Shown piece by piece: positions 1,609 through 51,782 of a stretch of 64,000 nt of DNA. How positions within the stretch are numbered: position 1 is the stretch's first letter; every line of letters starts with the position of its first letter. Origin of the DNA: a virus (Duplodnaviria; Caudoviricetes); IMG/VR virus record IMGVR_UViG_2901802297_000002, positions 15,716 through 79,715 of that record, one strand, 5' to 3'. The position numbers were made by a program, and so were the translations under genes. The notes below the pieces were generated by a model that did not search any database, was not told where the DNA came from, and saw nothing but the letters and a program-made list of their open reading frames with translations.

Positions 1609-3386
1609 AGTTCCTCACGGTCATAAATGCTCTGGATCGGTGGCTCCGGGTTTCGGCTCATGCAGGCCACGGCATCAAACAGCGCCATCAGCGGGTCGAT
1701 CTTCTTGCCGCCTGCCATCTGCTTGGTAATTTCGATATTGTTGCCCTTGGCCTGCGCCTTCGCGTTGCCAACCGCCCAGGCCATGATCGGACGCGCCCCA
1801 TGGGAGAACGTGCCATCCGCCAGCTTGCGCTCCAGCGTCTTGATGGCCCCGGTCATTTTCCAGCCCTGGCTGATCCCGACAATCCGCTCCTGCTCAATGC
1901 CACGGGCATGCAGGGCAAACACGATTTCAGCCACACCCGCAGGATCCAGCCCAACCATGGCCAGCTTGCCGGACTGGTCAATCATCTCCGCCACGTCCGC
2001 CAGCTGCCGATTGTCGTCACGCATTTCATGGACAATGACGAGATCACCCTGCTTCTGGAAATCCAGATAGCGCGGTGCTTCCTCCTTGCGGTGCTTCAGC
2101 ACATCCTGAAACACCCAGCTGCGCTGCCAGTGCAGCCAATCGCCACTTTCTTCATCCCGGCCGAGCACAGCCAGAGATAGAAAATCGTCCAGACCGCCGC
2201 CATCAATGCCGCAGACAATCACATCAGAACATTCCAAAATCAGCTCCAGTGTGACCAGCGGATCACCCTGGCGTTCCCAATATTTGGCCCCGGCCCATGC
2301 CTTTTCGCGCAGGGACATGCCCATTTCCACGTTCAGATGCTTGGCCATCCAGACGCGCAGCACGCCTTCCCCAGCCTCTTTGGCCTGAGCGTATCTATCC
2401 CGCAGGAACTCATCCGATACCGACACCCCCAGATTGGGGTTGGTCATGTACCAGTTATCCGGATTGTGCTCGCCTTTCTTATCCAGAATTTTCTTGGGAA
2501 ATTCATAGATAACCGGCAGGAAACGGGGCGAATTGATCTTGCCGTCCCGCACGCCACGCGCATATTCCAGACGGCTCTTAAACACACCGGCAGGCTCTTC
2601 ATCCGACTGCGTGCTCAGGTAAATGATGAAGCCTTCCGGACGGGAGGCGATGCCGCCAGTGGCTTCCATGAGCATGTTCTCAGCCGTGGGCTTCTTGCCG
2701 AACTCCCACAGTTCATCCACCAGAATGCCGGTGGCTTTCTTGCCCACAACAGAAGATCCATCTGCCGCCACAACCTTGAGTGTCGCCCCGGTTTCGCGGT
2801 GCGTCACGATGCGGGTGTAATCCTGCACATGGAACAGGGCATCCAGTTCCGGATCTGCCTTGATCATGTCCCGCGCAGGCTTGAAGGCGTTGTCTGCGGC
2901 TTCCTTGGTCGGTGCCAGGATCAGGAACTCGGCTGATTGCCGCCAGTTCAGGATCAGCACCGTCAACATTACGCCCGCCGCAATGGTGCTTTTGGTGTTC
3001 TTCTTGCTCACCAGCAGGAAAAACTCGGTGATCATGCGCTTTCCGGTTTCCGGGTCATATGAACCGAAAATGGCGGCCGCAAAGTCCTTCAGCCAATCAC
3101 GGCAGGATTCACCAATAGTGGGTTCACCCAGCACGTCCACGATCTTCAGGGCGTTGAAAACAGCCATTCCCTGCGCAGCGGCGTCCGGAAAAAGCAGATC
3201 ACATGGCACAAGGCTTTCGCCTGCAATGATGCGCTTTTCCCAATCCCGGCAGGCTGTGCTCCATGACAGGACAGCCTTGGCCGCAGGCGCTGCCTTGCGC
3301 CGTGTGGTGGCTGTTGCGGTCTTTCGCGCGGTGGTTGTCGCCTTGCGCTTGCGTGTTGCGGGCTTTTTCTCGGTTTCACTTGCCAT
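1596..3386 (-). CDS. terL: Terminase large subunit
   Basis: Walker A-like SKKNTKST, LVDE Walker B, GIDGG and KIDPLMA nuclease motifs. Confidence 0.93.
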   Translation of the reverse strand: MASETEKKPATRKRKATTTARKTATATTRRKAAPAAKAVLSWSTACRDWEKRIIAGESLVPCDLLFPDAAAQGMAVFNALKIVDVLGEPTIGESCRDWLKDFAAAIFGSYDPETGKRMITEFFLLVSKKNTKSTIAAGVMLTVLILNWRQSAEFLILAPTKEAADNAFKPARDMIKADPELDALFHVQDYTRIVTHRETGATLKVVAADGSSVVGKKATGILVDELWEFGKKPTAENMLMEATGGIASRPEGFIIYLSTQSDEEPAGVFKSRLEYARGVRDGKINSPRFLPVIYEFPKKILDKKGEHNPDNWYMTNPNLGVSVSDEFLRDRYAQAKEAGEGVLRVWMAKHLNVEMGMSLREKAWAGAKYWERQGDPLVTLELILECSDVIVCGIDGGGLDDFLSLAVLGRDEESGDWLHWQRSWVFQDVLKHRKEEAPRYLDFQKQGDLVIVHEMRDDNRQLADVAEMIDQSGKLAMVGLDPAGVAEIVFALHARGIEQERIVGISQGWKMTGAIKTLERKLADGTFSHGARPIMAWAVGNAKAQAKGNNIEITKQMAGGKKIDPLMALFDAVACMSRNPEPPIQSIYDREELWES

Positions 3387-3972
3387 TGTTCACAACTAGT
3401 TTGGGGGAAGACATGCGTGAGAACTTGCCGCTGGCTGCTTTTTCGGCAGCTTCCCGGCGCTCTTCCTTCACGCCCTTCTTTTTTCCGGAACCCGTGACGC
3501 CCATCATGTGGGTTTGCCTCAGCTTGTGCAGGCTTTCCGTGCGCTCTTTGATAGTGATGGCCTTCAACATCGCATCGCGCCGGCGCGATCCGGTATCGTC
3601 TGCTGTTTCCAGCTCAATCGCTTTGGAAATCTCGCCAAGATGGGATGTCGTATCCTCAAGTTCACCGAGCAGGCGCGACACCATTTCATCCATACGTTCA
3701 TCCACGTTGGCAGCAGATCTGCGCCCGGTGGATGGTAGTTTCTCCCGTGGTAGAGCGGGGTTGCGCTGGGGATTGTGCGCAGGTTGGTGCGCAGTTTTGG
3801 TATTTTTGCGCACTTTTTGCGCAGAAGTGCGCACCCATCCACCGGACGCAATGCGCTTGCGCAGCGTGCTTTCGGCTACGCCATGTTTTTTTGCAATTTG
3901 GCGGTTTGACAAGGCTCCTGCGCGAAAATCAGCCTCTATCGCGTGCCAATCCGTGTCAGTTTTCTTGGGCAT
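3376..3972 (-). CDS. terS: Terminase small subunit
   Basis: N-terminal HTH (DWHAIEADFRAG..SNRQIAKKHGV); overlaps the terL start. Confidence 0.8.
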   Translation of the reverse strand: MPKKTDTDWHAIEADFRAGALSNRQIAKKHGVAESTLRKRIASGGWVRTSAQKVRKNTKTAHQPAHNPQRNPALPREKLPSTGRRSAANVDERMDEMVSRLLGELEDTTSHLGEISKAIELETADDTGSRRRDAMLKAITIKERTESLHKLRQTHMMGVTGSGKKKGVKEERREAAEKAASGKFSRMSSPKLVVNNGK

Positions 3973-4014
3973 TCCCTACCATCCCGCGCAACAAAAGTGC
4001 GCACTTCAAAACGC

Positions 4015-4100
4015 TGGAACGAAAAATTTTTCACGCGTGCCACTGGCGCGGTTCAGGTGCCATGCGTCAGGCGCACTTTTACCCCTCCCCCTCCCCGCTA
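4015..4100 (-). other. Candidate cos/packaging-initiation region of prophage A
   Basis: GGGGAGGGGGAGGGG...CACGCGTGAAAAATTTTT between HNH and terS, the usual cos position in HNH-terS phages. Confidence 0.45.
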
Positions 4101-4126
4101 AACGCATAGCTGGGGGATGCTCAAAA

Positions 4127-4182
4127 ATACACACTGATACACACTTTTTGCATTGCTCTTGGTGTGTTTTTGTGTGTATGAT
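4127..4182 (+). promoter_or_regulatory. hicAB promoter/operator
   Basis: ATACACAC x2 (4127, 4137) facing GTGTGT/GTGTGTAT (4162, 4172); TTGCTC-18-TATGAT promoter 7 nt before the ATG. Confidence 0.6.
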
Positions 4183-4189
4183 TATGTGC

Positions 4190-4378
4190 ATGGACAGCAG
4201 AGAGATCATCAAGAAGATCAAGGCAGATGGCTGGTATCTTGTCGCCACGAAAGGCAGTCATCAGCAGTTCAAGCACCCGACAAAACCCGGTCGGGTAACG
4301 GTGCCTCACCCTAAGCGGGATCTTCCACTCGGCACTCTGCGGAGCGTAGAGAAACAATCAGGGGTCAAACTGAAATGA
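4190..4378 (+). CDS. hicA: HicA mRNA interferase toxin
   Basis: MDSREIIKKIKADGW...KGSHQQFKHPTKPGRVTVPHP signature. Confidence 0.93.
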   Translation: MDSREIIKKIKADGWYLVATKGSHQQFKHPTKPGRVTVPHPKRDLPLGTLRSVEKQSGVKLK

Positions 4379-4764
4379 GCGACTATATCGCGATCATCCA
4401 CAAAGAGCCCGAAAGTGATTTCGGGGTCAGCTTTCCAGATTTTCCCGGCTGCATCACAGCAGGCTCTTCATTGGAAGAAGCCCGGAAAATGGCCCAGGAA
4501 GCCTTGGAATTCCATATCTCTGGCATGACAGAAGATGGTGAGCCCATCCCTGCGCCATCGCCTTTGGATAAGGTCATGCAGGATCCGAACTTTGCTCAAG
4601 GTGTCGCCTTCATGGTTCATGTTCGGCTGCCTTCCAAAGCCGTGCGTGTGAACGTCACGTTGGATGAAAGCCTTGTGTCCGCCATTGCAGCTGTCAGCAA
4701 AAACCGCTCCAAATTTCTGGCTGAAGCCGCATGGGAAAAACTGAACCGTAATCAGGCTGTATAA
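4375..4764 (+). CDS. hicB: HicB antitoxin with C-terminal RHH
   Basis: FGVSFPDFPGCITAG..LEEA and RVNVTLD; ATGA overlap with hicA. Confidence 0.93.
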   Translation: MSDYIAIIHKEPESDFGVSFPDFPGCITAGSSLEEARKMAQEALEFHISGMTEDGEPIPAPSPLDKVMQDPNFAQGVAFMVHVRLPSKAVRVNVTLDESLVSAIAAVSKNRSKFLAEAAWEKLNRNQAV

Positions 4765-4777
4765 GCCTGCTTACCGC

Positions 4778-5107
4778 TCAATATTCCTGCTTATATCGCT
4801 CTGCCCGCGCCCGTGCGGTCTTGGCGGTATGGCAGGATCCGCAGAGCAACTGGACGTTGTTCTCGTCTAGCGGTGCGCCGCCGTCCTTCAGCTCCTGAAT
4901 GTGATCCCCAAAGAGCCGCGTGCCGGTGCGGCCGCACTGTTCACAGCAATGAGGCCGCTTGCGCTTGATGGATGCCATCAGGGCACGCCACTCACGGCTA
5001 GTATAAAAGCCGTCAGCGCGTTTGGGTGGCTCTTTGGCTATGCTGGTATCCAGAACGCCTACAAGCGGCCTCATGCACGTCAGAACGGCTTTCTTGCGGC
5101 TGCTCAT
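4778..5107 (-). CDS. Terminase-associated HNH endonuclease
   Basis: FYTSREW, CEQC, DHI, N..LLCGSCH. Confidence 0.9.
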   Translation of the reverse strand: MSSRKKAVLTCMRPLVGVLDTSIAKEPPKRADGFYTSREWRALMASIKRKRPHCCEQCGRTGTRLFGDHIQELKDGGAPLDENNVQLLCGSCHTAKTARARAERYKQEY

Positions 5108-5736
5108 GTGGTGGCCACGTCAAGCTTGGACAGGTCAAACGTTACCAGCTCCCACTTGGCATCTGGCGATGGCCGCCGGTGCAGCCGCACGTAGTCCTTG
5201 GTCACATCCACGCGCACGCTGTCAGAAATCGCCTGCATGCCGCGCTGCCATTCCTCATCGTCAATCTCCAGACGCCGCAGCGCGAGGATCTTGCCAACGT
5301 TCATGCTGCCCTGCTTGTCTACGTCAAACGCATCCAGCACCACAGCTTTCAGATTGGCGTTGGCACCTTCAGACCAGCGGTTCAGGCAACCATGGATCAG
5401 CGTTTGCGCCGCCTGAATTTCAGGGCCAAACGAAATGACGTTGCCGACCGCCACAGTCACGCGCAGCGTGCCATCATAGCTGGTCAGGGTAACGTTGCCT
5501 TTCTCGCTGCCCAGCTTGGTGCTGTATTGCTCGGCCACCAGATCCAGAAAGGCGTTGATCTCCGCAAAGCAGAGCCGCTTGAAATCCATCATGAACTGCC
5601 GCACCGGCTCGGCTTCATGGTGCAAACGGCGCACCAGCTCATCTTGCAGCTTGTCAGATGGTCGGACATTCGCTTCCGGCACCAAGCGCCCGCGACTGTC
5701 CTGCATGAAACCGTCAGGCACGGTTTGCATTGTCAT
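5104..5736 (-). CDS. DUF3164-family phage protein
   Basis: GFMQDSRGRLVP, KGNVTLTSYDG, ISFGPE, W..GM.AI.DS; paralogue at 48171..48803. Confidence 0.8.
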   Translation of the reverse strand: MTMQTVPDGFMQDSRGRLVPEANVRPSDKLQDELVRRLHHEAEPVRQFMMDFKRLCFAEINAFLDLVAEQYSTKLGSEKGNVTLTSYDGTLRVTVAVGNVISFGPEIQAAQTLIHGCLNRWSEGANANLKAVVLDAFDVDKQGSMNVGKILALRRLEIDDEEWQRGMQAISDSVRVDVTKDYVRLHRRPSPDAKWELVTFDLSKLDVATT

Positions 5737-5773
5737 TCTCCATCGTTGTCAGAAACGCCCGCGCCGGTTGGCG

Positions 5774-6649
5774 TCAGGCCAGAAGGTCAGCGCCCGCAGC
5801 ATCTGCGCTGGCGTGGCTGTATCGTGTTGTCGTGGCCAGCGAACTGTGGCCAAGCTGGGCCTGCACCCAATGCACCGGCTGCCCCGCGTCCAACTGGTGT
5901 GACGCAAAAGCATGGCGCAGCCAGTGAGCAGAGACATCAGGCGGCAGGCCCGCTCGTTTTGCGGCCCGCTTCACAACGCGATCCACAGCGCGTTCATGAA
6001 GCAGGCCGCCATCGTGGCCGGGGATAACGGGCGCATCTGGCCCGACATCAGACCGCACAGCCGCGATCTCTTTCCACAACGATGGTGAAACCTGCACATG
6101 GCGGGTTTTGCCACCTTTGCCGAAAACCGTTGCAATGCCGCCCGATTGGCGGCGTGTCATATCGCGCCAGCGTAACGCGCAGGCTTCTGAAATCCGCAGG
6201 CCGGTGCCGTAAAGCAGCGCCAGCAACGCATGGCGGCGCGGATCCTTCTCACCCGCCAGCATGGCTAACACCTGCTGGCGCGAAAGAATGCGCTCATTCA
6301 GATTGTCGCGGCCACGCTCCATGCGGAACGCAGCGCCCGCATCCTGCGGTAGAAAGCCCAGCTTGTGGCCGTAGGTCAGCAGCGATTTCACGGCGCTGAT
6401 CTTGCGCCGGCGCGTGCTGTCCGCCGCATCGGCCATGCTGTCGTTCCATGCCTGAATGTCAGCCAGGGCAACATCTGCCATCGGCTTGGCAACAAAACGG
6501 GCGAACTCCGCAACATTGGTGCGATAGGCCCGCACCGTGTTGCTGCTGCGGTTGTGCAGCCACGTTTTGACCAGCGGAAGATCCGCACGGTGAATGCCAT
6601 CATCTGGCACTGCTGGCGCGGCTGATCTGGGCTGATCACCGCTAACCAT
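5774..6649 (-). CDS. XerC-like tyrosine recombinase (resolvase type, no arm-binding domain)
   Basis: Intact catalytic set: GLRISE, GKGGK, HWLRH, LGH, TTRY; 291 aa. Confidence 0.9.
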   Translation of the reverse strand: MVSGDQPRSAAPAVPDDGIHRADLPLVKTWLHNRSSNTVRAYRTNVAEFARFVAKPMADVALADIQAWNDSMADAADSTRRRKISAVKSLLTYGHKLGFLPQDAGAAFRMERGRDNLNERILSRQQVLAMLAGEKDPRRHALLALLYGTGLRISEACALRWRDMTRRQSGGIATVFGKGGKTRHVQVSPSLWKEIAAVRSDVGPDAPVIPGHDGGLLHERAVDRVVKRAAKRAGLPPDVSAHWLRHAFASHQLDAGQPVHWVQAQLGHSSLATTTRYSHASADAAGADLLA

Positions 6650-6691
6650 TTGATTTCCCTATATTATCGGGTCACTTCCAACCCTCAAAAT

Positions 6692-6794
6692 CCGTCAGAT
6701 AACAGATATTATCTGACGGGTTTGGGGGGTGTTCTGCGGGTTATCTGACACCTTGGCAGGTATGCCGTGTCAGATAATACCGCGTTATCATGAC
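6692..6794. other. Recombination (res) site: core CCGTCAGATAA-CAGATA-TTATCTGACGG plus accessory boxes
   Basis: Perfect 11-bp inverted repeat with 6-bp spacer at 6692-6719; TTATCTGACAC 6741, GTGTCAGATAA 6767, TTATCA 6785. Confidence 0.75.
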
Positions 6795-6799
6795 GCTTT

Positions 6800-6949
6800 T
6801 TACTGACATGCCTGAATGATTGCAGCCATGCCAGGCAATGCTTTTGCAACTGCAAATGCCAGAGCAACCAGCACAAGAGCAACAAAGCGCCATGCTTTGA
6901 GATCATTCATCACTTGTACCAAACGCCAGAGATCTTTAAGATCAGGCAT
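6800..6949 (-). CDS. 49-aa single-TM membrane micropeptide
   Basis: MPDLKDLWRLVQVMNDLKAWRFVALVLVALAF...; AGGA RBS; homologue at 49835..49996. Confidence 0.7.
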   Translation of the reverse strand: MPDLKDLWRLVQVMNDLKAWRFVALVLVALAFAVAKALPGMAAIIQACQ

Positions 6950-6982
6950 GTTCATTCCTGGAAAGGTCAGGGGTGGATACAA

Positions 6983-7017
6983 GAAACCCCCGCGCTGCTC
7001 GAACAGCCGGGGGTTTC
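6983..7017 (-). terminator. GC-rich hairpin (terminator or structured leader)
   Basis: GAAACCCCCG...CGGGGGTTTC; conserved at 50031..50065. Confidence 0.6.
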
Positions 7018-7019
7018 GC

Positions 7020-7430
7020 TTAATCGGATGGAGCACCGCCAACCTTGCGGCCGCAATCGCCCCATTTTGGCCCGCACCATGTTGTTTCCATCACGCCGGG
7101 TGGCAACTTCTCCACTGTGCGGGAAGCATGTTCTTTGCGTAGCGCGGCATCAATGCGCTGCATGTCGTGCTCAGCATACACCGCACCCGCTGGCAGTTCG
7201 CGCAGCGATTGCAGGTGGCCATATTTTTCGCATGCAAGGGCATCACATCGGGCAACCGTATTTTTCAGGCTACCAATGGCCCGCAAAATCACATCAGCCC
7301 GATGCCGTGGCAAACAATCTGGAACCATGCGCACGCAATGCGCCACATTTCCATCTGCCGAAACGACTAGAACAATCTTCTTCCCGCGCAGCAGAACAGC
7401 ACCACGGCAGATCTTCTGCCAGTGTTTCAT
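7020..7430 (-). CDS. Hypothetical protein, divergent PemK/MazF-like pattern
   Basis: ICRGAVL..KKIVLVVS..H..V.L..ARCD..MQRIDAAL; homologue at 50068..50475. Confidence 0.6.
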   Translation of the reverse strand: MKHWQKICRGAVLLRGKKIVLVVSADGNVAHCVRMVPDCLPRHRADVILRAIGSLKNTVARCDALACEKYGHLQSLRELPAGAVYAEHDMQRIDAALRKEHASRTVEKLPPGVMETTWCGPKWGDCGRKVGGAPSD

Positions 7431-7453
7431 GCGTTCAGCTTTTCAGAAGATAC

Positions 7454-7486
7454 AAAAAAAGCCGTGGCCCAGATGGACACACGACT
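7454..7486 (-). terminator. Late-leader intrinsic terminator (tR'-like)
   Basis: AGTCGTG...CACGGCTTTTTTT right after the putative late regulator; conserved at 50501..50534. Confidence 0.7.
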
Positions 7487-7529
7487 TCGACTATTTTGAC
7501 AATTTAAACGCGAAAGCTGCCGCAAGCAA

Positions 7530-8021
7530 CTATTTATTGAACCAGAGCTGCCCTGGCATATCTGTATAAAGGTCAGCCAGTTGCTCCAGGCAGAAATCAA
7601 TGGCACCGGCTATACGCTCTCGCCGCTTGCCATGCTTTTCAGACATTTTCTGCACAGAAAGACCATTTACCATTAAATCTGTCAGAAATTTCTCGCCTAG
7701 CGGCCCCATATGCTTCCGAATATATCGGCAGCGGTCAGCTGCACGAATACGCGCAATCAAGGCGTTTTCTGGATCTGGCTTTCCACATTGTTTTGATGCG
7801 TCTGGATCCCGCGCACCTAAAAGGCCGGTTTCATAATCCTGCGCCCACTGTTCTGCTGCCGCAACTTGCGCATCTGACAACGTGCCAGACTTCTGCAACG
7901 CATAAACCGCGCCCGATGAACGCAGGCGCGGCTGTTCTGATTTACAAACCGGATCTTTAATATAGACGCTGGTGATATCGCCTTTTTCTAGGCGCTCCGG
8001 CGTGGGAGGTAGTTCTTGCAT
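7530..8021 (-). CDS. Putative late-gene regulator (Q position; DUF6456-like, C-terminal HTH)
   Basis: Last early gene before the promoter/terminator; homologous to the C-terminal part of 50594..51331. Confidence 0.6.
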   Translation of the reverse strand: MQELPPTPERLEKGDITSVYIKDPVCKSEQPRLRSSGAVYALQKSGTLSDAQVAAAEQWAQDYETGLLGARDPDASKQCGKPDPENALIARIRAADRCRYIRKHMGPLGEKFLTDLMVNGLSVQKMSEKHGKRRERIAGAIDFCLEQLADLYTDMPGQLWFNK

Positions 8022-8251
8022 GTTGCAGCCCCGCGTTTTTGTGCATATCTTCCTCTGGCATCACGGGGACGGTCATTCTCGTAATCGGACAAGCGGCGTG
8101 TCAGAGTGGTGACTTCCAATTCAGCCTCTGCACGCCGTTTTTGTTCCTGGGCCAGCTTGGCCCGCAGGTCTTCCATTGCATCAATCGGGTTGGGCTTGCC
8201 TTCGGCCTTCAACCGCAGGTTTCTCAAAAGCTGCGTGAAGCACCCGCTCAT
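7988..8251 (-). CDS. Small coiled-coil phage protein
   Basis: Homologue at 51328..51549; RPRDARGRY motif. Confidence 0.7.
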   Translation of the reverse strand: MSGCFTQLLRNLRLKAEGKPNPIDAMEDLRAKLAQEQKRRAEAELEVTTLTRRLSDYENDRPRDARGRYAQKRGAATCKNYLPRRSA

Positions 8252-9438
8252 GCTGCTTTTGCTTCCGTGTTCTGGGAATTAGCGCGGTAATACGCGGCAT
8301 ATTCTTCCGCATTGCGCCTTACATGCGCAGGCGGCAGACCATGTGCTTTGGCCTGTTCATTGAATAGGCGCGAACATTTTGTGAAACTGCTGTCCTGCTT
8401 GAAAAGCGATGCCCACAGCCTGTTTGCTTCCTGAGCTTTCTTCCGGGCCTTAGCCATCTCCGGATCTTCCGCGATGGGCGCTTTATCTTGCGCCCTAAAT
8501 TCATCCAGATCCTGATTGGCCAAGGCGTTTGCCATAGGCTTCACAAACCCGCCCAGATGCTCAACCTTTTTCCCCAGATCACGATATTTCTGCACCGTTT
8601 CATGAATTGTGCGGATAATCAGATCTTCAGAAGCCCCGGCATTGAGCCATTCCTTGGCATAACGCATTGCATGAAGGGCCTGGTCTTTCCGGTTTTCATC
8701 AAAAGCCCGGATAATGCTGTAAGCCACCCGCTTGATCTCGGCATCGGGAATGCTGGGTTCTGGGTTTTGGGTTTCGCCAGTAGAGGAAGAATTAGGTTTA
8801 TATATATTATTACTCTTCTCTACTGTAGAACCCACGGAACCCAGATTATCCGAAACCGAAACCTGTTGGGTTTCTTGCGTGGGTTTCTGTGCTGCGGCAT
8901 TTCCCCCCGCAATAGGCATCATCATGTTCTGCTGGGCACGCTGTGCCGCCTGTTCTCGCTCCTTGCGTGCGTAATATTCTTCGTCTGACTCGCCTTTGCG
9001 TTTCCGGCCGCCCTTTTTGCCGTTTTCACGGGCTGACATAGCCTTGCGGCTTAGACCAGGCGGCACATCACCGCTTTCCTGCTTCTGCTGCCAGTCTGCA
9101 TCCGCTGTAGCTGTGCGGGTAGCGCGTTCCTCACGCCGTAGCAGCCGGTCATACATAACAGTGCTGAACAGCGCATTTTCATCATCACGCGCCAGCATGC
9201 CACGGGCAATCATCTGCGGCAGGTTGCGTTCCAGCTCATCGGCCTGCAATCCGGCCTGTTTGGCAATTTCCGTATCATTCAAAACCAGTGTGCCAGCACG
9301 AAACACGCAAGAACGCATTTCCTTCAGCGCATCCAGCAGCTTGTCCAGCACGCCGCGCATTTCGCACGGTGCTGAACGCAAGGTTTTTGGTGATGGTATT
9401 TGGCTGCGGTCAAATTCCGCAATGTTGGGGCATATCAT
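8248..9438 (-). CDS. Phage replication initiator (lambda O-like position)
   Basis: N-terminal wHTH-like region, ARENGKKGGR motif, internal iteron-like repeats; homologue at 52339..53511. Confidence 0.7.
   Translation of the reverse strand: MICPNIAEFDRSQIPSPKTLRSAPCEMRGVLDKLLDALKEMRSCVFRAGTLVLNDTEIAKQAGLQADELERNLPQMIARGMLARDDENALFSTVMYDRLLRREERATRTATADADWQQKQESGDVPPGLSRKAMSARENGKKGGRKRKGESDEEYYARKEREQAAQRAQQNMMMPIAGGNAAAQKPTQETQQVSVSDNLGSVGSTVEKSNNIYKPNSSSTGETQNPEPSIPDAEIKRVAYSIIRAFDENRKDQALHAMRYAKEWLNAGASEDLIIRTIHETVQKYRDLGKKVEHLGGFVKPMANALANQDLDEFRAQDKAPIAEDPEMAKARKKAQEANRLWASLFKQDSSFTKCSRLFNEQAKAHGLPPAHVRRNAEEYAAYYRANSQNTEAKAA
8755..8890. repeat. Putative replication origin iterons
   Basis: Clustered TGGGTT/AACCCA/GAAACC repeats around an AT-rich tract inside rep. 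Confidence 0.5.
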
Positions 9439-9860
9439 GCTGCCGCGCTCCTTGCCGCATACATGTACAGCTTTGCTCTCCTAATACCGACAACGCGCAG
9501 CAATGCTTTGGAAAGCCGCCTGCGGTCATTCATCATATTGGAAAGGTGTTTGATATTTAGGCTGTGCAACCGCGCAAAAGCCGAATTGCCGCCAGCCTGC
9601 CTTATTGCTGTATTCAGTTTTGAATACACTTCCAGCATGGGCAGGATGTTGCCATCCACATCCACATACCGTTCAACTTCAATCAGGCCCAACGCTGCCA
9701 GCAGTTCATCATTCAGCCTGCGGCGTGCATTGGCCATGTTAGACAGTGTTTTGTCGTTCAGGCCCAACATGCGGGCAAAAGCCGAATTGCCACCGGCTTT
9801 GCGCATGCGTGTATTCAAAAATGAATACACCGCCTCAAGATCAAAAAACACGTCAGCCAT
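9435..9860 (-). CDS. Protein made of two tandem HTH-like repeats
   Basis: VYS.LNT..R.AGGNSAFAR...LN.K.LSNM.N.RRRL occurs twice. Confidence 0.75.
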   Translation of the reverse strand: MADVFFDLEAVYSFLNTRMRKAGGNSAFARMLGLNDKTLSNMANARRRLNDELLAALGLIEVERYVDVDGNILPMLEVYSKLNTAIRQAGGNSAFARLHSLNIKHLSNMMNDRRRLSKALLRVVGIRRAKLYMYAARSAAA

Positions 9861-10357
9861 CAGAAGCCACTAGCCTCTTGCGGAAAGGTCACCTGCAATG
9901 GCTTGCCTTCTGCAATGATCTTATGAGCTGTGGATTCAATATGATGCAGCGATGTGCGGGCACGTTGCGCATATGTGAGAATTTCTTGCGCTTCCTGCAC
10001 ATCCACGTTGCCATCCGCCATGCTCTCGAAGCCCTTTTGCAGAACCTCACTGGTGGCCTTGGCAAACTTACCCATATCGTGTGGCAGTGGGCCGCTTCCG
10101 AATTTAACCGGAACCAGAGCAAAGCCCTCTGCATTAGCCATTTCTGAAAGCAGAATGGGCTGCTCCGCACATCTGTCCAGATCTATGGCAACGTCTAGTG
10201 GAATAACGGTTGGCTGATGCCGGCTGGCATAGGCTTCCAGCTGAGATTTCTGCACGCGCGTAAAACCGGCCGCAGCACGAAAATCTCCAACAGCTTCAAC
10301 CGCATGTTTTGTGGCTGTTTTGATGGACGCCAGAAAGCGATTAGAAAATGGTGTCAT
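9860..10357 (-). CDS. CII-like regulatory protein
   Basis: IKTATK, P.DVA.DLD, ADGNVD..EA; homologue at 53603..54103. Confidence 0.7.
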   Translation of the reverse strand: MTPFSNRFLASIKTATKHAVEAVGDFRAAAGFTRVQKSQLEAYASRHQPTVIPLDVAIDLDRCAEQPILLSEMANAEGFALVPVKFGSGPLPHDMGKFAKATSEVLQKGFESMADGNVDVQEAQEILTYAQRARTSLHHIESTAHKIIAEGKPLQVTFPQEASGF

Positions 10358-10665
10358 GCCGCGGCATTCCTCAACACCAACACACGCTGCATTTCACACA
10401 GAATTTCCTGCATTAGAGGCATTGCCGCAAGGAGTGCATCAGCCATGCCAAGCAACATCATGCATTGCATCTGCTCTGCATTTGTATTCACTTTTGAAGA
10501 ATTGCGGCACTGTTTCGTGCCCCAATCTACATCATGACCACCACGGGAATCAGTGAAAACGCTGGAAAGAAGATCTGCACGCCGCGCCTGCAGATCCTTC
10601 CGTATATCCAAAGTCCGGCGGCACAGATCGTCTAGATCTTTCATATCCTTACTGAAGAAGCTCAT
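10354..10665 (-). CDS. Hypothetical phage protein
   Basis: ATGA-coupled on both sides within the pR-like operon. Confidence 0.55.
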   Translation of the reverse strand: MSFFSKDMKDLDDLCRRTLDIRKDLQARRADLLSSVFTDSRGGHDVDWGTKQCRNSSKVNTNAEQMQCMMLLGMADALLAAMPLMQEILCEMQRVLVLRNAAA

Positions 10666-10919
10666 GGCGTAAAAAACGCCTTCAGGCGTGCAAACGTAGG
10701 GCAATACAATTTCGGAAAACCGAAAACCCTCACATGGCGCACAAAATCGCGCAGTCTGGGGTAGTAAAAACAAACCGTAACGTCTTCGCTTTGCCCAAAC
10801 TTTTGTATGGAAATCTCAGTTATAGCCACACCTAGCAAAAGCCGTGTGTCAGGCTGCATTCGCAGGCTATACCATGGGGCAGAACGCAGCCAGAAACGTA
10901 GTTCATTCAGCATGATCAA
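10662..10919 (-). CDS. Hypothetical phage protein
   Basis: ATGA overlaps with both neighbours. Confidence 0.5.
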   Translation of the reverse strand: MIMLNELRFWLRSAPWYSLRMQPDTRLLLGVAITEISIQKFGQSEDVTVCFYYPRLRDFVRHVRVFGFPKLYCPTFARLKAFFTP

Positions 10920-11425
10920 CCTGCCTGCGTCTCGTCTTGAGCAGGAACGCCAACGGTAAATTCATGCCGGTTGAGTGTACCAATATCTTCGGGCCGAAGC
11001 GGTTTTTCCAGCCCATACACAGTCGCCAAACAACCTCTGGCCCTATCCTGATAATCCACACCCATAACGTGATCACAAGACATTGTGGGCCATGCGTTTT
11101 GAGCCAAATCACGCAGCTGATACCGAAATTCCTTATTGGCATCAGCGCCATTCTGGAACTCCTGCATGATGTAAAGCAAACGGGCCAATAGCCATGTTTG
11201 TTTGGCATCCAGTTCCAGCACGGTTGCATCTTGTGAAGCATTGTTCACCTGGAGCAATGAGCTGCCGCAATCTGCCACGCTGATCATGCAAATCGGATCA
11301 ACGTCTCTTGAATTGCGCTTCTGGGAATCACTCATGCCTTCACTCCCGGCATTATGTAAAAGTGCCTTGGCTTCCTCCAAAATACGATTTAATTCGGCCC
11401 CCAATACTTTATGGCAATCAATCAT
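10916..11425 (-). CDS. Hypothetical phage protein (start 11425 or 11335)
   Basis: ATGA coupling; both possible starts lie in the repeated ATGA.TGATT.CCA motif. Confidence 0.5.
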   Translation of the reverse strand: MIDCHKVLGAELNRILEEAKALLHNAGSEGMSDSQKRNSRDVDPICMISVADCGSSLLQVNNASQDATVLELDAKQTWLLARLLYIMQEFQNGADANKEFRYQLRDLAQNAWPTMSCDHVMGVDYQDRARGCLATVYGLEKPLRPEDIGTLNRHEFTVGVPAQDETQAG

Positions 11426-16590: not shown

Positions 16591-16826
16591 TGAGAGGAAT
16601 GATTGCAGCACCTACCCGCCGTATTCTCAACATGAAGGAAGCGGCTTCATACATGGGTATGTCTGTAACCACATTCAGGGAGCAAGTCGCGCCGCAAGTA
16701 AAAGGTGTAAGGGTGCTGCCGAAGCGCATTAGCTACGATGTAGAGGAATTAAACAGCTTTATTGATCGTATGTCAGGGAAATCAACGGATTCTCACGAAC
16801 AGAATTTCTGGGATAAATTCAGGTGA
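16587..16826 (+). CDS. xis: Excisionase (HTH_17/AlpA-like)
   Basis: LNMKEAASYMGMS.TTF...YDVEEL; overlaps the int start. Confidence 0.8.
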   Translation: MMRGMIAAPTRRILNMKEAASYMGMSVTTFREQVAPQVKGVRVLPKRISYDVEELNSFIDRMSGKSTDSHEQNFWDKFR

Positions 16827-17851
16827 CAATCATACGCCTGAAATACGTTCACAAGTTCCCCGGCCGCAATGGGAAGACTCGTTATTATCTCAGAAAGCCG
16901 GGGCATAAGCAGGCTAAGCTGCCAGATCCATCCAGCCCAGATTTCTATGCCGAATATCTGCGCCTCCTGAATGGGGACGCCCCAAAGATAGAAGTGCAGA
17001 AGTCTAAAACGATTGAAGGCAGCTTGCTTGACCTTATCGTGCAGTGGAAAACATCCCACAAATATAAAACCATCAAACAGAGCACGAAACAGGTATATGA
17101 TCGGCTTCTGAACAGAATAGCTGCAATGGATTGCGCTCAAGGCGCGGTCAAGCATATGGCTCCGCAAAATATTCGCTTCATCATGCGCCAATATGAAGAG
17201 GCAGGCCCCACAACAGCCAACCGCATATTAAGCATTCTCAGCATGATGCTGGACTACGCCATAGATATTGGCTGGCGTGATGATAACCCTGCCGTGGGTA
17301 TTAAGCGCCTGCAAATAAAATCCAAGGGCCTGCATTCTTGGTCTGATGCAGAGATTGAGAAATATCAGTCGCATTGGCCTACAGGCACAAAGCAGCGTCT
17401 GGCATTTGCTTTATTATTATATACGGGCCAGCGCAGAAGTGATGTTGTGCGCATGCGCCCAGATGATGTGTCTAGCGGAAGCATTAAGGTCACACAGCAG
17501 AAAACTGGGGCAAAGCTGGACATCCCCATTCATCCGAAACTTCAGGCAGAACTGAATGCTTGGCAGGATGTCGGTGCAGGAACATTCCTTGCCACAGAGT
17601 ATGGCAAGCCGTTTTCTGTGAACGGATTTTATAACAATTTTTCGGAATGGTGTCAGGAAGCCGGATTGCCCAAAGGATGCAGCCCACATGGGTTGCGCAA
17701 AGCAGCAGCCAGACTGCTTGCAGAAGCCGGCTGCACCACGCACCAGATCGCATCCATCACAGGGCACAAGACTCTATCAGAGGTGGAAAGATATACCCGT
17801 GCTGTGGAGCAGAAACGCCTAGCTCAAGAGGCCATGATCAAGATTGAATAA
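16823..17851 (+). CDS. int: Prophage A tyrosine integrase
   Basis: N-terminal arm-binding region; YTGQRRSD, QQKT, HGLRK, TGH, RY. Confidence 0.93.
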   Translation: MTIIRLKYVHKFPGRNGKTRYYLRKPGHKQAKLPDPSSPDFYAEYLRLLNGDAPKIEVQKSKTIEGSLLDLIVQWKTSHKYKTIKQSTKQVYDRLLNRIAAMDCAQGAVKHMAPQNIRFIMRQYEEAGPTTANRILSILSMMLDYAIDIGWRDDNPAVGIKRLQIKSKGLHSWSDAEIEKYQSHWPTGTKQRLAFALLLYTGQRRSDVVRMRPDDVSSGSIKVTQQKTGAKLDIPIHPKLQAELNAWQDVGAGTFLATEYGKPFSVNGFYNNFSEWCQEAGLPKGCSPHGLRKAAARLLAEAGCTTHQIASITGHKTLSEVERYTRAVEQKRLAQEAMIKIE

Positions 17852-48028: not shown

Positions 48029-48207
48029 GACATCCCCGATTTTATGATGATGTATTGCAGCCGCCGTATTTCACGGTGCTGCTCTTCTAACTGGCGAGAT
48101 TTACGGCCCATTTCCCGGCGCAGTTTGAAATTCTCACGCCGCGCAGAAAGCACATCCGTCAGCCAGCGCTTCATGCCTTTGCCAGATCCAGCGATAACAT
48201 TTGCCAA
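48010..48207 (-). CDS. Hypothetical basic coiled-coil protein
   Basis: In-operon ORF. Confidence 0.45.
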   Translation of the reverse strand: MANVIAGSGKGMKRWLTDVLSARRENFKLRREMGRKSRQLEEQHREIRRLQYIIIKSGMSCDVKK

Positions 48208-48803
48208 GCCTGCTCCGGCGTTTCTCGCTTATGAAGCCGAAGATATGCCTTGCTGCTGTCGATACGAATGCTATCTGCAATAGCATCCATGGCCCGCTTC
48301 CACTGTGGCTCGTCTATATTGTGCCGGCGAAGACCAAGGATTTTCGTGGCGGAAAGTTTACCTTCTTTCCCCACATCGAACGCTTCCATCGCAATGGTTT
48401 TTAGGTTCGCGTTCGCGCCCTCAGACCACTCCTCAAAAAGTTCATCCAGCAGACTCTTGGCAACCTGCAGTTCAGGCCCAAAAGAAATGCTCTCACCCAT
48501 GCAAACAGACACGCGCAATCGGCCATCGTAGCTACTCAGCGTGGTATTGCCTTTCGGTCCACCAAGCTTGGCATGATATTTTTCATGCAGCAGAGATTGC
48601 AGCGCAGAAACCTCACTGAAACCGCGCTTCTTGAATTCTGCCAACTCTCTCGCCAGAAGCTTCGCTTGCGCATGAATGGCGCGAACCAGCTCATCTTCCA
48701 GAAGATCTTGCGGCTTTACCTGCGCAACAGGAACCAGACGCCCTTGAGCATCTTTCATATAGCCCTCGGGCACATCGTCCACGGGCTGGGGTGTGTCTGT
48801 CAT
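48171..48803 (-). CDS. DUF3164-family phage protein
   Basis: 210 aa, paralogue of 5104..5736. Confidence 0.8.
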   Translation of the reverse strand: MTDTPQPVDDVPEGYMKDAQGRLVPVAQVKPQDLLEDELVRAIHAQAKLLARELAEFKKRGFSEVSALQSLLHEKYHAKLGGPKGNTTLSSYDGRLRVSVCMGESISFGPELQVAKSLLDELFEEWSEGANANLKTIAMEAFDVGKEGKLSATKILGLRRHNIDEPQWKRAMDAIADSIRIDSSKAYLRLHKRETPEQAWQMLSLDLAKA

Positions 48804-48807
48804 GATG

Positions 48808-49698
48808 TCAGTCCAGATATTTTGCAGAGCCGTCACCCTCACGCACGTGAGAGTAACGTGTGGTTGTAGCGAGAGAGGCATGCCCCAGCGTGGCGCAAAC
48901 CACGTGGGCAGGCGCATTGTTGTCCAATGCGTGCGATGCGTGGGCGTGCCGGAGCCAATGCGCTGAGACACGCGATGACAATCCGGCACGCCGTGCTGCC
49001 CGCTTCACGACACGATGCGCCGCATCTTTCGAGAGCGAGCAGCCATCATGGCCGGGGATAACAGGCGCATCTGGCCCGCTATCAACCCTGAGCGCCATGA
49101 GTTCTTTGAACAGTTTGGCAGGAACCTGCACAGGTCGCGTCTTGTTTCCCTTACCGAAAACGGAAGCAACCGCGCCCTGCTGGCGGCGCGTCAGATCTCG
49201 CCAACGCAAAGCGCAGGCCTCTGAAATGCGCAGCCCCATACGGTACAGAACATTCAGCAGCGCTCGCTTGCGCGGCTCTTCTTCGCCGTCAATCAGCGCA
49301 ATCACCTGCTCACGGGTGAGAATGCGCTCATGCAGCGTGTCTCTCCCTCGCGCTATGCGAAATGCAGATCCTGCATCATGAGAAAGAACGCCAGTCCCCG
49401 CGCCGTAGGAAAGGAGAGATTTAACGGCTGATAATTTTCTTCTGCGCGTGGCATCGGAAGCATTGCCCATGCTGTCAAACCACGCCTGTAGGTCTGGCAA
49501 CACAATCTCGTTAAGTGATTTCCCGGCAAATGCCAGAAGGTCGCGCACGTCTCTCTCGTATGCGCGGCGCGTGTTCTCGCCACGGTTATGCAGCCACGTC
49601 CGGATGCACAGCTCATCGGCAGAAACTGGGGCGGCTTTCACCGCCTCTGGCGCGGGTGATCGGTTACGATCTCCGCTAACCATTTGTTTTCCATACAT
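48808..49698 (-). CDS. XerC-like tyrosine recombinase (resolvase type)
   Basis: GLRISE, GKGNK, HWLRH, LGH, TTRY; paralogue of 5774..6649. Confidence 0.9.
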   Translation of the reverse strand: MYGKQMVSGDRNRSPAPEAVKAAPVSADELCIRTWLHNRGENTRRAYERDVRDLLAFAGKSLNEIVLPDLQAWFDSMGNASDATRRRKLSAVKSLLSYGAGTGVLSHDAGSAFRIARGRDTLHERILTREQVIALIDGEEEPRKRALLNVLYRMGLRISEACALRWRDLTRRQQGAVASVFGKGNKTRPVQVPAKLFKELMALRVDSGPDAPVIPGHDGCSLSKDAAHRVVKRAARRAGLSSRVSAHWLRHAHASHALDNNAPAHVVCATLGHASLATTTRYSHVREGDGSAKYLD

Positions 49699-49725
49699 TA
49701 TGTGGTGTTTTTCACCCCATTAAAT

Positions 49726-49828
49726 CCGCAAGATAACTACACTTATCTTGCGGGTTTTTGGGGTGCTGTACGACTTATCTTGCGGGTGCCCAATACTGGG
49801 GTGCCAGATAAGTCAGCGTTATCATTGC
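49726..49828. other. Recombination (res) site: core CCGCAAGATAA-CTACAC-TTATCTTGCGG plus accessory boxes
   Basis: Perfect 11-6-11 inverted repeat at 49726-49753; TTATCTTGCGG 49775, CCAGATAA ending 49811, TTATCA 49819. Confidence 0.75.
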
Positions 49829-49834
49829 GTCTTT

Positions 49835-49996
49835 TTACCGGCATGCCTGAATGATTGCAGCCACACCGGGGAGCGCTTTTTCGATGGCAAATGCGAGACC
49901 AGTGATTAGAGCAACAAGCATAATCACAGTGAAGCGCCATGCTTTAATTTCATTCATGACTTGTACCAAACGCCAGATATCTTTAAGATCAGACAC
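49835..49996 (-). CDS. 53-aa single-TM membrane micropeptide
   Basis: Manual translation from GTG: MSDLKDIWRLVQVMNEIKAWRFTVIMLVAL...IIQACR. Confidence 0.7.
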   Translation of the reverse strand: MSDLKDIWRLVQVMNEIKAWRFTVIMLVALITGLAFAIEKALPGVAAIIQACR

Positions 49997-50030
49997 GTTC
50001 ATTCCTGGGTCAATCAGGGGTGGACAAAAA

Positions 50031-50065
50031 GAAACCCCCGGCTGTTCACGCAGCGCGGGGGTTTC
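50031..50065 (-). terminator. GC-rich hairpin (terminator or leader)
   Basis: GAAACCCCCG...CGGGGGTTTC, same as 6983..7017. Confidence 0.6.
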
Positions 50066-50067
50066 GC

Positions 50068-50475
50068 TTAATCAGACGGCGCACCGCCAATTTTTCTTCC
50101 GCAACCACCCCACTTTGGGGGCCTCCAGCTGGAGCGAATTGTGCCTGCAGAAATTTGTTCACCTGTCTGGAGCATCATTTCCCGTTGCACCGCAGCTTCT
50201 ACACGCAGCACATCCGCTTCTGCTGCCGGGCCAATGTCGGCAGCCATACGGCGCAATGCACTCCGCGCCACGCGGGCAACACGTGCCGCACGTGCAATGC
50301 GATTGCGCAACAGCAAACCGCTGCCGCCCAGATCAACATCACTGCGATGATAAGGAGGATTGGTGTTGATCAACTGAACAACAAGGCATTCAGGCCCATC
50401 AACACCTAAAACCAGAACCGGCTTTTTCCCGCGCAGCACAATAGAGCCCCGGCAGATACTCCGCCGCTTGCCCAT
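50068..50475 (-). CDS. Hypothetical protein, divergent PemK/MazF-like pattern
   Basis: ICRGSIV..KKPVLVL..LVV.L..H..V.L..GL..IG....V.RVEAAV. Confidence 0.6.
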   Translation of the reverse strand: MGKRRSICRGSIVLRGKKPVLVLGVDGPECLVVQLINTNPPYHRSDVDLGGSGLLLRNRIARAARVARVARSALRRMAADIGPAAEADVLRVEAAVQREMMLQTGEQISAGTIRSSWRPPKWGGCGRKIGGAPSD

Positions 50476-50500
50476 AAGTATGCTCGTATTGTTCGGAAAT

Positions 50501-50578
50501 AAAAAAAAGCCGTGGCCCTCTCAGGCACACGACTTCGAATAGGATACCAGAATAGACAGATTATCTGTGGACAGTCAA
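50501..50578 (-). promoter_or_regulatory. Late promoter plus leader terminator (pR'/tR'-like)
   Basis: TTGACT-18-TATTCT then AGTCGTG...CACGGCTTTTTTTT. Confidence 0.65.
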
Positions 50579-50593
50579 GATAACTCTAAAAAA

Positions 50594-51331
50594 TCAGTTA
50601 TCGTCTTTTTTAGGTTCGATATTGAACCACAGTTTTCCAGGCATCTCTGCATATACGTCTGCCAGCTGCCCTAACAGCAATTCAATGGCGCCAGAAATCT
50701 GACGCCGATCACGCTTGCGCTGCCCCGCAACCTGAGAAATGCTCATATGGTCGATCAGGAAACTATACAGAAATTCTTCTGAACGTTTTCCAAGGTGCTC
50801 TCGAATATATCTGCACCGTTCTGTCCCATGCATGCGGGCAAGCAAAACATATTCAGGATCTGGCTTACCGCCCTTACTAGATTCTTCCGGATCTTTGGCA
50901 CCCATGATTCCGGTCTCATAATCCCGCGCCCACATCTGGGCTGCCGCCACTTCGGCATCACCAATCACGCCAGAAGTATGCAGCTTGTTTAACAGCCCGC
51001 ATGAGCTGGAAACCTCAACTGCCGGTTTACCTTTCTCTTCCAGCCAGATGGTTGCAACGTCACCATGCTGCTGGCGTTCTGGAAGAACTTCACCTGATGG
51101 GCCTGAATGCAATGTAAGTTTTTCGAGCGCATCAACATGTTCATCATCACTAACGTGATGGAATAGTTTGCATTCTCGCAGTGGAAAGGATTTCTCGCCT
51201 AATCCAATACCAAATGCACGTATGCCATCATCATAAGCATACTGGAAACGAAAGGCATCTATCTTCCCTTCCCGATATATAATCCAATCCCCTGCCCGGA
51301 ATTGAATGTCCTTTGGCTCTTTCTGGGTCAC
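50594..51331 (-). CDS. Putative late-gene regulator with extra N-terminal domain
   Basis: C-terminal ~165 aa homologous to 7530..8021. Confidence 0.6.
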   Translation of the reverse strand: MTQKEPKDIQFRAGDWIIYREGKIDAFRFQYAYDDGIRAFGIGLGEKSFPLRECKLFHHVSDDEHVDALEKLTLHSGPSGEVLPERQQHGDVATIWLEEKGKPAVEVSSSCGLLNKLHTSGVIGDAEVAAAQMWARDYETGIMGAKDPEESSKGGKPDPEYVLLARMHGTERCRYIREHLGKRSEEFLYSFLIDHMSISQVAGQRKRDRRQISGAIELLLGQLADVYAEMPGKLWFNIEPKKDDN

Positions 51332-51549: not shown

Positions 51550-51782
51550 GGCCGCTGCTCCCAACTGTTATCGGCACGCTCTTTCATGCGGCCGAGTGAA
51601 AACATGCAACCGAACCCCAACCAACAGCCTAAAAATTGAACCACGGACAAGATTGTCACAAACCAGAAGCCAGCCCCTCTTTCTTGAGCAGTCACAGAGC
51701 CCAGAAGAAAAACATTGTTGATGAATAGGCCTGCCACAGCGCCAAACAATGGAAGGACCCATTTCAGAACTTTTCTATTCAT
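51546..51782 (-). CDS. Two-TM membrane protein
   Basis: Hydrophobic helices; ATGA coupling. Confidence 0.55.
   Translation of the reverse strand: MNRKVLKWVLPLFGAVAGLFINNVFLLGSVTAQERGAGFWFVTILSVVQFLGCWLGFGCMFSLGRMKERADNSWEQRP

Follow-up and report, generated by a model that had tools for sequence, protein, structure and literature searches.

A Xer-like tyrosine recombinase and its five-half-site array at the head of the packaging genes of two tandem Acetobacter prophages

The cassette and its two prophages

The stretch analysed here (the window; 64,000 nucleotides, positions 15,716 to 79,715 of IMG/VR virus record IMGVR_UViG_2901802297_000002) belongs to a provirus record of 79.7 kb in which two Acetobacter prophages, A and B, lie in tandem; each of them carries a small cassette in which the gene of a Xer-like tyrosine recombinase is preceded by an array of recombinase half-sites. 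Cassette A occupies positions 7529..5104 and cassette B positions 50578..48171, both on the minus strand, and the order of elements described in the initial annotation was recovered at both loci: a promoter, an intrinsic terminator, an open reading frame (ORF) for a MazF/PemK-fold protein, a GC-rich hairpin with a transmembrane (TM) peptide of 51-55 amino acids, the recombination site, the recombinase and a DUF3164 protein. The divergence of the proteins between A and B noted there is borne out by pairwise identities of 39-69% (39% for the MazF-fold proteins p136 and p135, 50% for DUF3164, 62% for the recombinase and 69% for the TM peptide), as is the difference between the head modules downstream: prophage A has a PF03354-type large terminase subunit (TerL), a PF04860 portal and an HNH protein, prophage B a GpA terminase, a lambda-family portal, capsid protein E and decoration protein D. 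The sequence of prophage B over the cassette agrees with that of Acetobacter phage phiAP1 at ~95% identity; more distantly related are prophage A and phage phiKM1.

Near one end of each prophage lies the gene of an arm-type or central-domain integrase (16823-17851 and 62819-64000), and the product of that in prophage B carries the Pfam domain Arm-DNA-bind_3. For phiAP1, the end integrase and an attP at tRNA-Ser have been reported to mediate integration experimentally (PMC8566455). The recombinase that is the subject of this study is the second, internal 'integrase' of the database records, designated PhiAP1_290 in phiAP1.

The recombinase and its site

The recombinase genes are located at 5774..6649 in prophage A and at 48808..49683 in prophage B, both on the minus strand, and each encodes 291 amino acids, counted in B, the equivalent of PhiAP1_290, from a conserved MVSGD start. 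Both products are two-domain proteins matching Phage_integrase (PF00589; E 4e-28 and 9e-27) and SAM_1 (PF02899) and nothing resembling an arm-binding domain. The catalytic residues R152, K178, H242, R245, H268 and Y277 are shared by A and B and are invariant in an alignment of 30 sequences. The best NCBIfam models, XerC, XerA and XerD, all score under their cut-offs (159 of 335 bits required for XerC and 143 of 330 for XerD; XerS reaches 65 of 267), so that the protein falls into none of these equivalog families, and the closest solved structures are those of XerA, IntI4 and XerD. The recombinase is not the prophage integrase. In one relative (locus L029, 5647-6406) a probable frameshift divides the gene into two ORFs that overlap, and the site is intact.

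The site of prophage A (6694..6794, minus strand) comprises five half-sites, h0 at 6794-6784, h1 at 6777-6769, h2 at 6749-6741 and the two arms of the core GTCAGATAA-TATCTG-TTATCTGAC at 6717-6694. That of prophage B (49728..49828, minus strand) has the core GCAAGATAA-GTGTAG-TTATCTTGC and three more half-sites with the same spacing as in A. The clustering of these motifs is far from random: TTATCTGAC occurs five times in the window against 0.20 expected, with four copies, the complement included, inside the 84 bp from 6694 to 6777, and TTATCTTGC occurs four times against 0.64 expected, with three copies inside 49728-49783. The core is dif-like, with two inverted arms of 9-11 bp flanking an asymmetric 6-bp spacer, and the entire array measures ~100 bp. 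Counted from the recombinase ATG, the core begins 58 bp upstream in prophages A and B (65-68 bp in relatives), and the further half-sites are found 32, 60 and 76 bp upstream of the core, a register which is kept in 39 of 42 distinct upstream sequences. Judging from this clustering and fixed register, what the initial annotation had called a res site appears to be a genuine recombinase site with multiple subsites.

Two patterns of variation bear on the partners of this site. The arms fall into four classes, GTCA, GCAA, GGGA and GGGAC, and in 36 of 39 sequences h2 and the left core arm are the same; core arms and h2 change jointly from locus to locus, and h0 follows the core arms in three of the four classes. 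The spacer, in turn, exists in 14 distinct versions, and four of these are found with recombinases sharing 98% identity or more. Such variety among near-identical recombinases indicates that the site pairs with a further copy of itself in DNA of the same phage rather than with a fixed external site. Correspondingly, an inverted-repeat core with an asymmetric spacer is found beside the recombinase gene once per replicon: within the 79.7-kb record there is one core site per prophage, in the same orientation in A and B, the B-type core is the sole match in the complete phiAP1 genome, and two complete plasmids likewise hold one site each. A second core site that would allow inversion or cassette exchange was sought in both prophages, phiAP1 and the two plasmids, and none was found. 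In five host genomes the exact inner motif is confined to prophages, save for one chance match; this match was rejected as a partner site, as it is non-palindromic, lies within a coding region and has no neighbouring homologues.

The recombinase and its site are by no means restricted to phages. Relatives with 40-50% identity are found in Alphaproteobacteria, cyanobacteria, Planctomycetes, Acidobacteria, Bacteroidota and Firmicutes, and the family is present in 69 plasmid records. In 57 loci outside the phage lineage the neighbours include ParA (12 of the 57), prim-pol/DUF3987, ArdC and a RelE toxin-antitoxin pair, and in 23 of these loci the motif GCAAGATAA-N6-TTATCTTGC, with at most three mismatches, lies between -500 and +100 of the gene start; only one further match occurred in 534 kb of flanking sequence. 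On plasmid pCMU02, for example, the site follows parA and precedes the recombinase gene by 42 bp. On Methylobacterium plasmid pNYY1_2 (locus L117, 774-3453), where the site is located after parA and a ribbon-helix-helix gene, an IS5-family and an IS110-family element part it from the recombinase gene by 2.7 kb. Since the recombinase is the only gene common to all these contexts, it is in all likelihood the protein that reads the arms, and by its distribution the family looks like a resolution module of plasmids and other mobile elements, including integrative and conjugative elements (ICEs). The 38 recombinases from phages form a single clade (SH-aLRT support 100) in what is a quick tree only.

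Linked genes of the cassette

The initial annotation took the conserved order for a sign of one functional unit, a view that independent assortment of the components among related prophages was to call into question. We surveyed 41 non-redundant Acetobacteraceae phage loci related to A and B. DUF3164 lies directly 3' of the recombinase in 39 of them, at gaps of 4-240 nt (a truncated copy occurs once, and one locus lacks the gene), and p136 is placed ahead of the site in 36 of the 39 loci with enough upstream sequence. The order also recurs with differing virion modules, as had been claimed, since two packaging types follow it in this set (HNH with TerS_A in 23 loci, p218 with TerS_B in 13) and a third in a Gluconobacter prophage (locus L050). 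There, p163, a short p136 relative, the site and the recombinase are found without DUF3164, and another type of small terminase subunit (TerS), TerL and portal begins 4 nt past the recombinase stop. Thus, the recurrence of the order stands, but its reading as a single unit finds only partial support, and the components do in part assort: the hairpin and TM peptide are carried by only nine of the 41 loci, and L050 dispenses with DUF3164.

Colinear homology between A and B reaches further upstream, through p163/p245, a coiled-coil ORF and p396/p390 to a CII-like gene. As it spans the whole early region from CII to DUF3164, the shared order is to be attributed largely to common descent, and the cassette, rather than standing as an island of its own, is the end of an early region that both prophages share. 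The constant feature, in the sequences compared, is the site with the recombinase just ahead of the terminase genes. Contigs from RNA libraries of related strains cover TerS, HNH, DUF3164, the recombinase and the site, which is no proof of a single transcript; in two studies they end at ~6796-6801, a strain-variable point at which the TM insert is present or absent, and one contig of 13 kb suggests that DNA or induced phage was in the library.

DUF3164 had been proposed as a cofactor of the recombinase by analogy with TnpS/TnpT, in which a tyrosine recombinase and an adjacent small gene act in cointegrate resolution. The likeness lies in the adjacent small gene as a putative accessory factor; the differences are that DUF3164 is co-directional, lies downstream and is mostly found without such a recombinase. 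The gene occupies 5104..5736 in A, where its stop overlaps the HNH start, and 48171..48803 in B, where it begins 4 nt past the recombinase stop (both minus strand, 210 amino acids). Its assignment to PF11363 is unequivocal, with E 1e-71 in A and 5e-68 in B, 240.7 and 228.9 bits against a threshold of 23.7, and coverage of positions 1-194 of 194. The AlphaFold2 (AF2) model is confident (pLDDT 93.5), yet Foldseek found no match in the PDB (best E 0.26), a wide VIA-align comparison reached at best Z 6.0 over the helical part 103-174 only, and a search of the ESM Atlas excluding PF11363 yielded no usable match; nor did a literature search for DUF3164 return a functional paper. By tblastn against phage records, 209 encode DUF3164, and most are Mu-like transposable phages, e.g. 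B3, JBD25, BcepMu (gp05) and RC1, a setting in keeping with the published description of such carriers (PMC5488378). Only two of the 209, phiAP1 and phiKM1, hold the recombinase too. In the Mu-like and the Acetobacteraceae phages alike, the gene is among the last ahead of the late functions. A true DUF3164 gene next to the recombinase is absent from all 57 loci outside the phage lineage; weak phmmer matches in two of them (L061, 1e-5; L092, 6e-5) were discarded, being ORFs that overlap the recombinase gene itself. DUF3164 therefore does not accompany the recombinase consistently, and, the phage recombinases being one clade, its adjacency represents one inherited event and not a repeated association. 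We conclude that it does not serve the recombinase family as a general cofactor and, as far as these distributions go, is a linked gene within one clade. In phiAP1 the DUF3164 gene (L001, 13283-13915) is labelled 'sulfate transporter', a label also found in a Pseudomonas phage record and probably a propagated mis-annotation.

The first gene of the cassette encodes p136 in prophage A (7020..7430, minus strand, 136 amino acids, PHROG 27245) and its homologue p135 in prophage B (50068..50475, minus strand, 135 amino acids). Neither has a Pfam or NCBIfam match at E <= 0.01. An AF2 model of p136 built from 18 homologues (pLDDT 79) is predicted to form a MazF/CcdB-type SH3-like barrel with a C-terminal helix, and the top matches listed by Foldseek in the PDB are all MazF/PemK toxins (E 1.6e-4, probability 1.0, target TM-score 0.61-0.76). 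The designation 'PemK-like ORF' is thus right at the level of the predicted fold and does not extend to membership of the toxin family by sequence. Compared with MazF/PemK toxins, which they resemble in predicted fold, p136 and p135 lack a sequence-family match, have an extra conserved basic C-terminal tail (GRKVGGAPSD in the family alignment) and have no adjoining antitoxin gene, as the promoter and terminator lie upstream and the TM peptide or the site downstream. In addition, the position of the catalytic Thr of MazF is not evident in the p136 alignment.

The hairpin and the TM peptide that follow form a 221-bp insertion. In prophage A the hairpin (6981..7017) is GC-rich with a T-rich tail, terminator-like, and folds with -27.6 kcal/mol (z -5.3), and the peptide (6800..6955) has 51 amino acids, a single TM segment and no family match; in prophage B the hairpin (50026..50065) ends in a T-run and folds with -26.2 kcal/mol (z -4.7), and the peptide (49835..50002) has 55 amino acids. 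All four lie on the minus strand. In relatives that lack the insertion, the p136 stop adjoins the recombination site, and a contig of a related strain joins 6798 directly to 7020. One locus (L010, 5299-5718) has two different TM-peptide ORFs in tandem ahead of the site.

At the head of the cassette, the promoter P' of prophage A (7501..7529, minus strand) has a -35 element TTGCTT at 7529-7524, a 17-bp spacer and a -10 element TAAATT at 7506-7501, which is a weak match, and the terminator t' (7454..7488, minus strand), a 13-bp stem followed by T7, begins ~12 nt past the -10 element and folds with -17.8 kcal/mol (z -5.1). In prophage B, P' (50549..50578, minus strand; TTGACT, 18 bp, TATTCT) was found by a consensus scan, and t' (50501..50536, minus strand) folds with -18.7 kcal/mol (z -4.3). 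For t' and the GC hairpin, in A and in B, none of 200 shuffled sequences was as stable. This layout, TTGACN, a variable 18-bp spacer, TAnnnT, 9 nt and a hairpin with T6-8, precedes the MazF-fold gene in all 21 distinct sequences from the window and its relatives, which confirms that the pair is conserved; the t' hairpins range from -17 to -25 kcal/mol and show compensatory stem changes, e.g. GTCGTG/CACGGC versus GGCGTG/CACGCC. These energies stem from folding each sequence separately, since RNAalifold on the MAFFT alignment gave a poor consensus with a misaligned loop region. In phage lambda, the late promoter PR' runs into the close, strong terminator tR', and transcription of the late genes depends on antitermination by Q. 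The cassette resembles PR'-tR' in having such a pair at the head of the late genes, upstream of packaging functions, and differs in that t' begins ~10 nt past the predicted start site and that no Q-like antiterminator was identified. A promoter running into a strong terminator suggests, on the sequence, the start of a late unit gated by antitermination or an activator.

The nearest gene upstream of the promoter, p163 in A (7530-8021) and p245 in B (50594-51331), the latter with an 80-amino-acid N-terminal extension, belongs to PHROG 16492, has a weak DUF6456 match and is conserved across the lineage; in relatives, accessory genes are frequently inserted between it and P'. By eye its C-terminus resembles a helix-turn-helix (HTH), which makes it a candidate late regulator. 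The spacer of P' in B (50548-50567) contains an imperfect palindrome, CAGATAA-TCTGTC-TATTCTG, which is like the A-type recombinase core with two mismatches, and the promoter spacers vary widely among relatives, as expected for binding by a cognate regulator. A Rfam scan of 3000-11000 gave nothing beyond two sub-threshold matches to miRNA models.

Possible roles of the recombinase and its site

The explanation that we favour, and hold to be somewhat probable, is that the recombinase and its site form a self-contained module which resolves or cyclises multimers of phage DNA, while the genes around it are linked by descent rather than being parts of one machine. Recombination itself, with its direction and timing, we infer from what is observed of the gene identities, the anatomy of the site, its co-variation and its distribution. 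In one lineage of temperate Acetobacteraceae phages, the block would form the stretch of the late (packaging) transcription unit nearest to the promoter, with the Xer-like recombinase and its own upstream ~100-bp site as functional core. The recombinase would bind its own arms, as the arms change with the recombinase lineage and the same site accompanies distant relatives that share no other gene, and it would act between copies of the one site that the phage itself carries. In this way, phage DNA that is multimeric or terminally redundant might be converted into monomer circles, comparable to the action of Cre/loxP in P1 or TnpI/IRS in Tn4430, and the accessory half-sites would probably provide resolution selectivity in the role that DR1 and DR2 have in TnpI/IRS. 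Integration would be left to the separate arm-type integrase at the end of each prophage. Expression may be gated by the sigma-70-type promoter and the immediate strong terminator, with read-through presumably via a phage antitermination or activation factor, and the MazF-fold protein, the optional TM peptide and DUF3164 would be co-transcribed passengers.

Several points weigh against this explanation. No recombination product or junction was seen in the contigs of related strains. The phages integrate and have cos-type terminases, of the HNH-assisted HK97 type in A and of the GpA type in B, and there is no obvious need of a resolvase, which is the most serious objection; for lambda-like packaging, late monomerisation could even be counter-productive. 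Phage P2, on the other hand, packages from monomer circles, and a late resolvase would be sensible if the present phages did likewise, and would not be for lambda-like packaging. The selectivity ascribed to the accessory half-sites rests on the likeness to TnpI/IRS, and four distant loci with a clear core contain no extra copies, a sample too small to generalise from. The RNA-library contigs may derive from DNA and end at strain-variable junctions, so that they do not fix the timing as late, early or lysogenic, and the P' of prophage A has a poor -35 element that the consensus scan missed. Finally, the adjacency of DUF3164 in nearly all relatives leaves room for a functional link specific to this lineage. 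A more specific version of the idea combines a late-expressed, antitermination-gated 'packaging-substrate resolvase', which would supply unit circles or defined substrates to three terminase types, with DUF3164 as a recruited directionality or accessory factor and with the GTCA, GCAA and GGGA classes as orthogonal recombinase/site pairs; in this full form we regard it as unlikely.

Other explanations can be envisaged, namely a second attP, an operator array, exchange between phages and a DUF3164-dependent system, and each is less well supported than a resolution module. If DUF3164 were dedicated to the recombinase as an accessory factor or as a determinant of directionality, making this a two-protein system like TnpS/TnpT as the initial annotation had suggested, this would account for its position directly behind the recombinase, which is kept down to 43% recombinase identity (L079), and its confident yet unmatched fold would leave room for such a function. 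However, the linkage goes back to a single event in one phage clade, the loci outside this clade do without the gene, its other carriers, as far as they have been described, are Mu-like transposable phages (PMC5488378), and in L050 the site and recombinase run directly into TerS; we therefore consider such a role distinctly unlikely. A second system for integration or excision, with the site as an alternative attP, might be read from the 'integrase' label of the gene in the records and from distant relatives located beside prim-pol genes, which are typical of integrative elements. Yet both integrated prophages contain the full site, unbroken, in their middle, and each has its own arm-type integrase; no second full site exists in the five host genomes, and the recombinase is devoid of an arm-binding domain. 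Furthermore, a fixed attB would forbid the differing spacers of near-identical recombinases, and the chances of this alternative appear small.

It might also be considered that the half-site array serves mainly as a transcriptional operator for autoregulation or for control of the packaging operon, recombination being secondary or lost. The array lies directly 5' of the recombinase start, behind it comes a conserved stretch, TTGAnG...TAAT(A/G)T, that may be a promoter, and five half-sites are more than strand exchange requires. But in TnpI/IRS extra half-sites regulate recombination itself, according to the account consulted (PMC2847244), the putative -10 element overlaps the ribosome-binding region, which renders the promoter call doubtful, and the conserved catalytic residues and a core geometry exactly that of a strand-exchange site likewise speak against an operator; we hold a mainly regulatory role to be very unlikely. 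Recombination between co-resident or co-infecting phages, by which early and virion modules would be exchanged, would be in line with the three types of packaging module joined to the cassette and with the shared orientation of the sites in the tandem prophages. Against it, each genome has a single site, A and B have different arms and different spacers, which makes cross-recombination unlikely, and the mosaic break between A and B follows DUF3164 and not the site, through which DNA homology is continuous; we consider this explanation most improbable.

The initial annotation did not recognise the cassette as a described system, which no longer holds for its core, as a recombinase with an adjacent site is a known type of system. 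Cre of phage P1 is a single tyrosine recombinase that acts at one loxP site per genome in cyclisation and dimer resolution, in a phage that is a plasmid as a prophage and packages by the headful. The present module is similar to Cre/loxP in being a phage-borne lone tyrosine recombinase with one inverted-repeat site with an asymmetric spacer beside the gene, and differs in that these phages integrate through a separate integrase, have cos-type terminases and possess three extra half-sites. The inner arm ends, ATAA-N6-TTAT, are like those of dif. Comparable in architecture is TnpI/IRS of Tn4430, for which a site of ~100-116 bp is described, with an inverted-repeat core and extra 9-bp motifs that are bound by further subunits and confer resolution selectivity without a second protein (PMC2847244). 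Both combine a tyrosine recombinase with a ~100-bp site in which copies of the motif are added to the core; in the IRS, as described there, the motifs number four, two of them direct repeats, with a 4-bp spacer in a Tn3-family transposon, whereas five motifs and a 6-bp spacer occur here, in phages. XerS/difSL and other single-recombinase Xer systems (PMC2965235, PMC5357621) likewise link a lone Xer-type recombinase to a dif-like site; they are described as chromosomal and FtsK-coupled, in contrast to the present family on phages, plasmids and ICEs, whose NCBIfam scores are far under the cut-offs. Another phage example is gp50 of the Tyrovirus group, an extra Xer-like recombinase in the late region of temperate 160-kb Bacillus phages that adjoins a perfect 11-6-11 site and, in the account available, has no function assigned (PMC9703825). 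It differs in lying in the tail module with the site downstream of the gene, and the same account reports neither accessory half-sites nor DUF3164.

Our literature search, in which supplements were outside the scope, found no description of the recombinase family, the site or the cassette. In the portions of a study on prophages of acetic-acid bacteria that were available (PMC9379143), supplements excepted, the internal recombinase is not discussed and the words 'recombinase' and 'XerC' are absent, and in the corresponding portions of the phiAP1 report (PMC8566455) recombinases appear in general terms only, without discussion of the internal one.

The module type is known from plasmids and has not been studied in phages such as these. 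The enzyme and the site are of an ordinary type; what is unusual is the consistent placement, the five-subsite architecture and the natural specificity classes. Setting inherited synteny apart from the working module brings into view a widespread and apparently unstudied family of Xer-like recombinases on plasmids, ICEs and phages, recognisable by GCAAGATAA-N6-TTATCTTGC just upstream. The five-subsite array with its specificity classes offers a tractable natural system in which to follow the evolution of tyrosine-recombinase specificity and resolution selectivity, and might be a source of orthogonal Cre-like tools. It also raises the question of why integrating cos-type phages retain a resolvase at the head of the packaging operon, which is directly testable, as an infection and curing system exists for phiAP1 (PMC8566455). 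Of further interest are DUF3164, with its unmatched fold, and the MazF-fold protein, whose gene lies behind a promoter-proximal terminator.

The surroundings of the cassette are variable in several respects. Two slots flank it, one between p163 and P' and the other between DUF3164 and the packaging genes, and are occupied in loci L008, L018, L021, L035, L036, L042, L043 and L046 by inserts that measure up to 4.9 kb, with genes, frequently in the opposite orientation, for Bro-N, a KwaB-like protein (Kiwa defence), an Ltp-type lipoprotein and HTH-M78 (ImmA/IrrE-like). In prophage A, a HicA/HicB toxin-antitoxin pair (Pfam E 5e-22 and 7e-32) lies on the plus strand at 4154-4764, between the HNH and TerS genes, and in contigs of related strains without it 4107 is connected to 4801 via 87 other letters. 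A DNA methyltransferase (PHROG 799) at 51779-52342 is found in prophage B only, inside the otherwise colinear early region.

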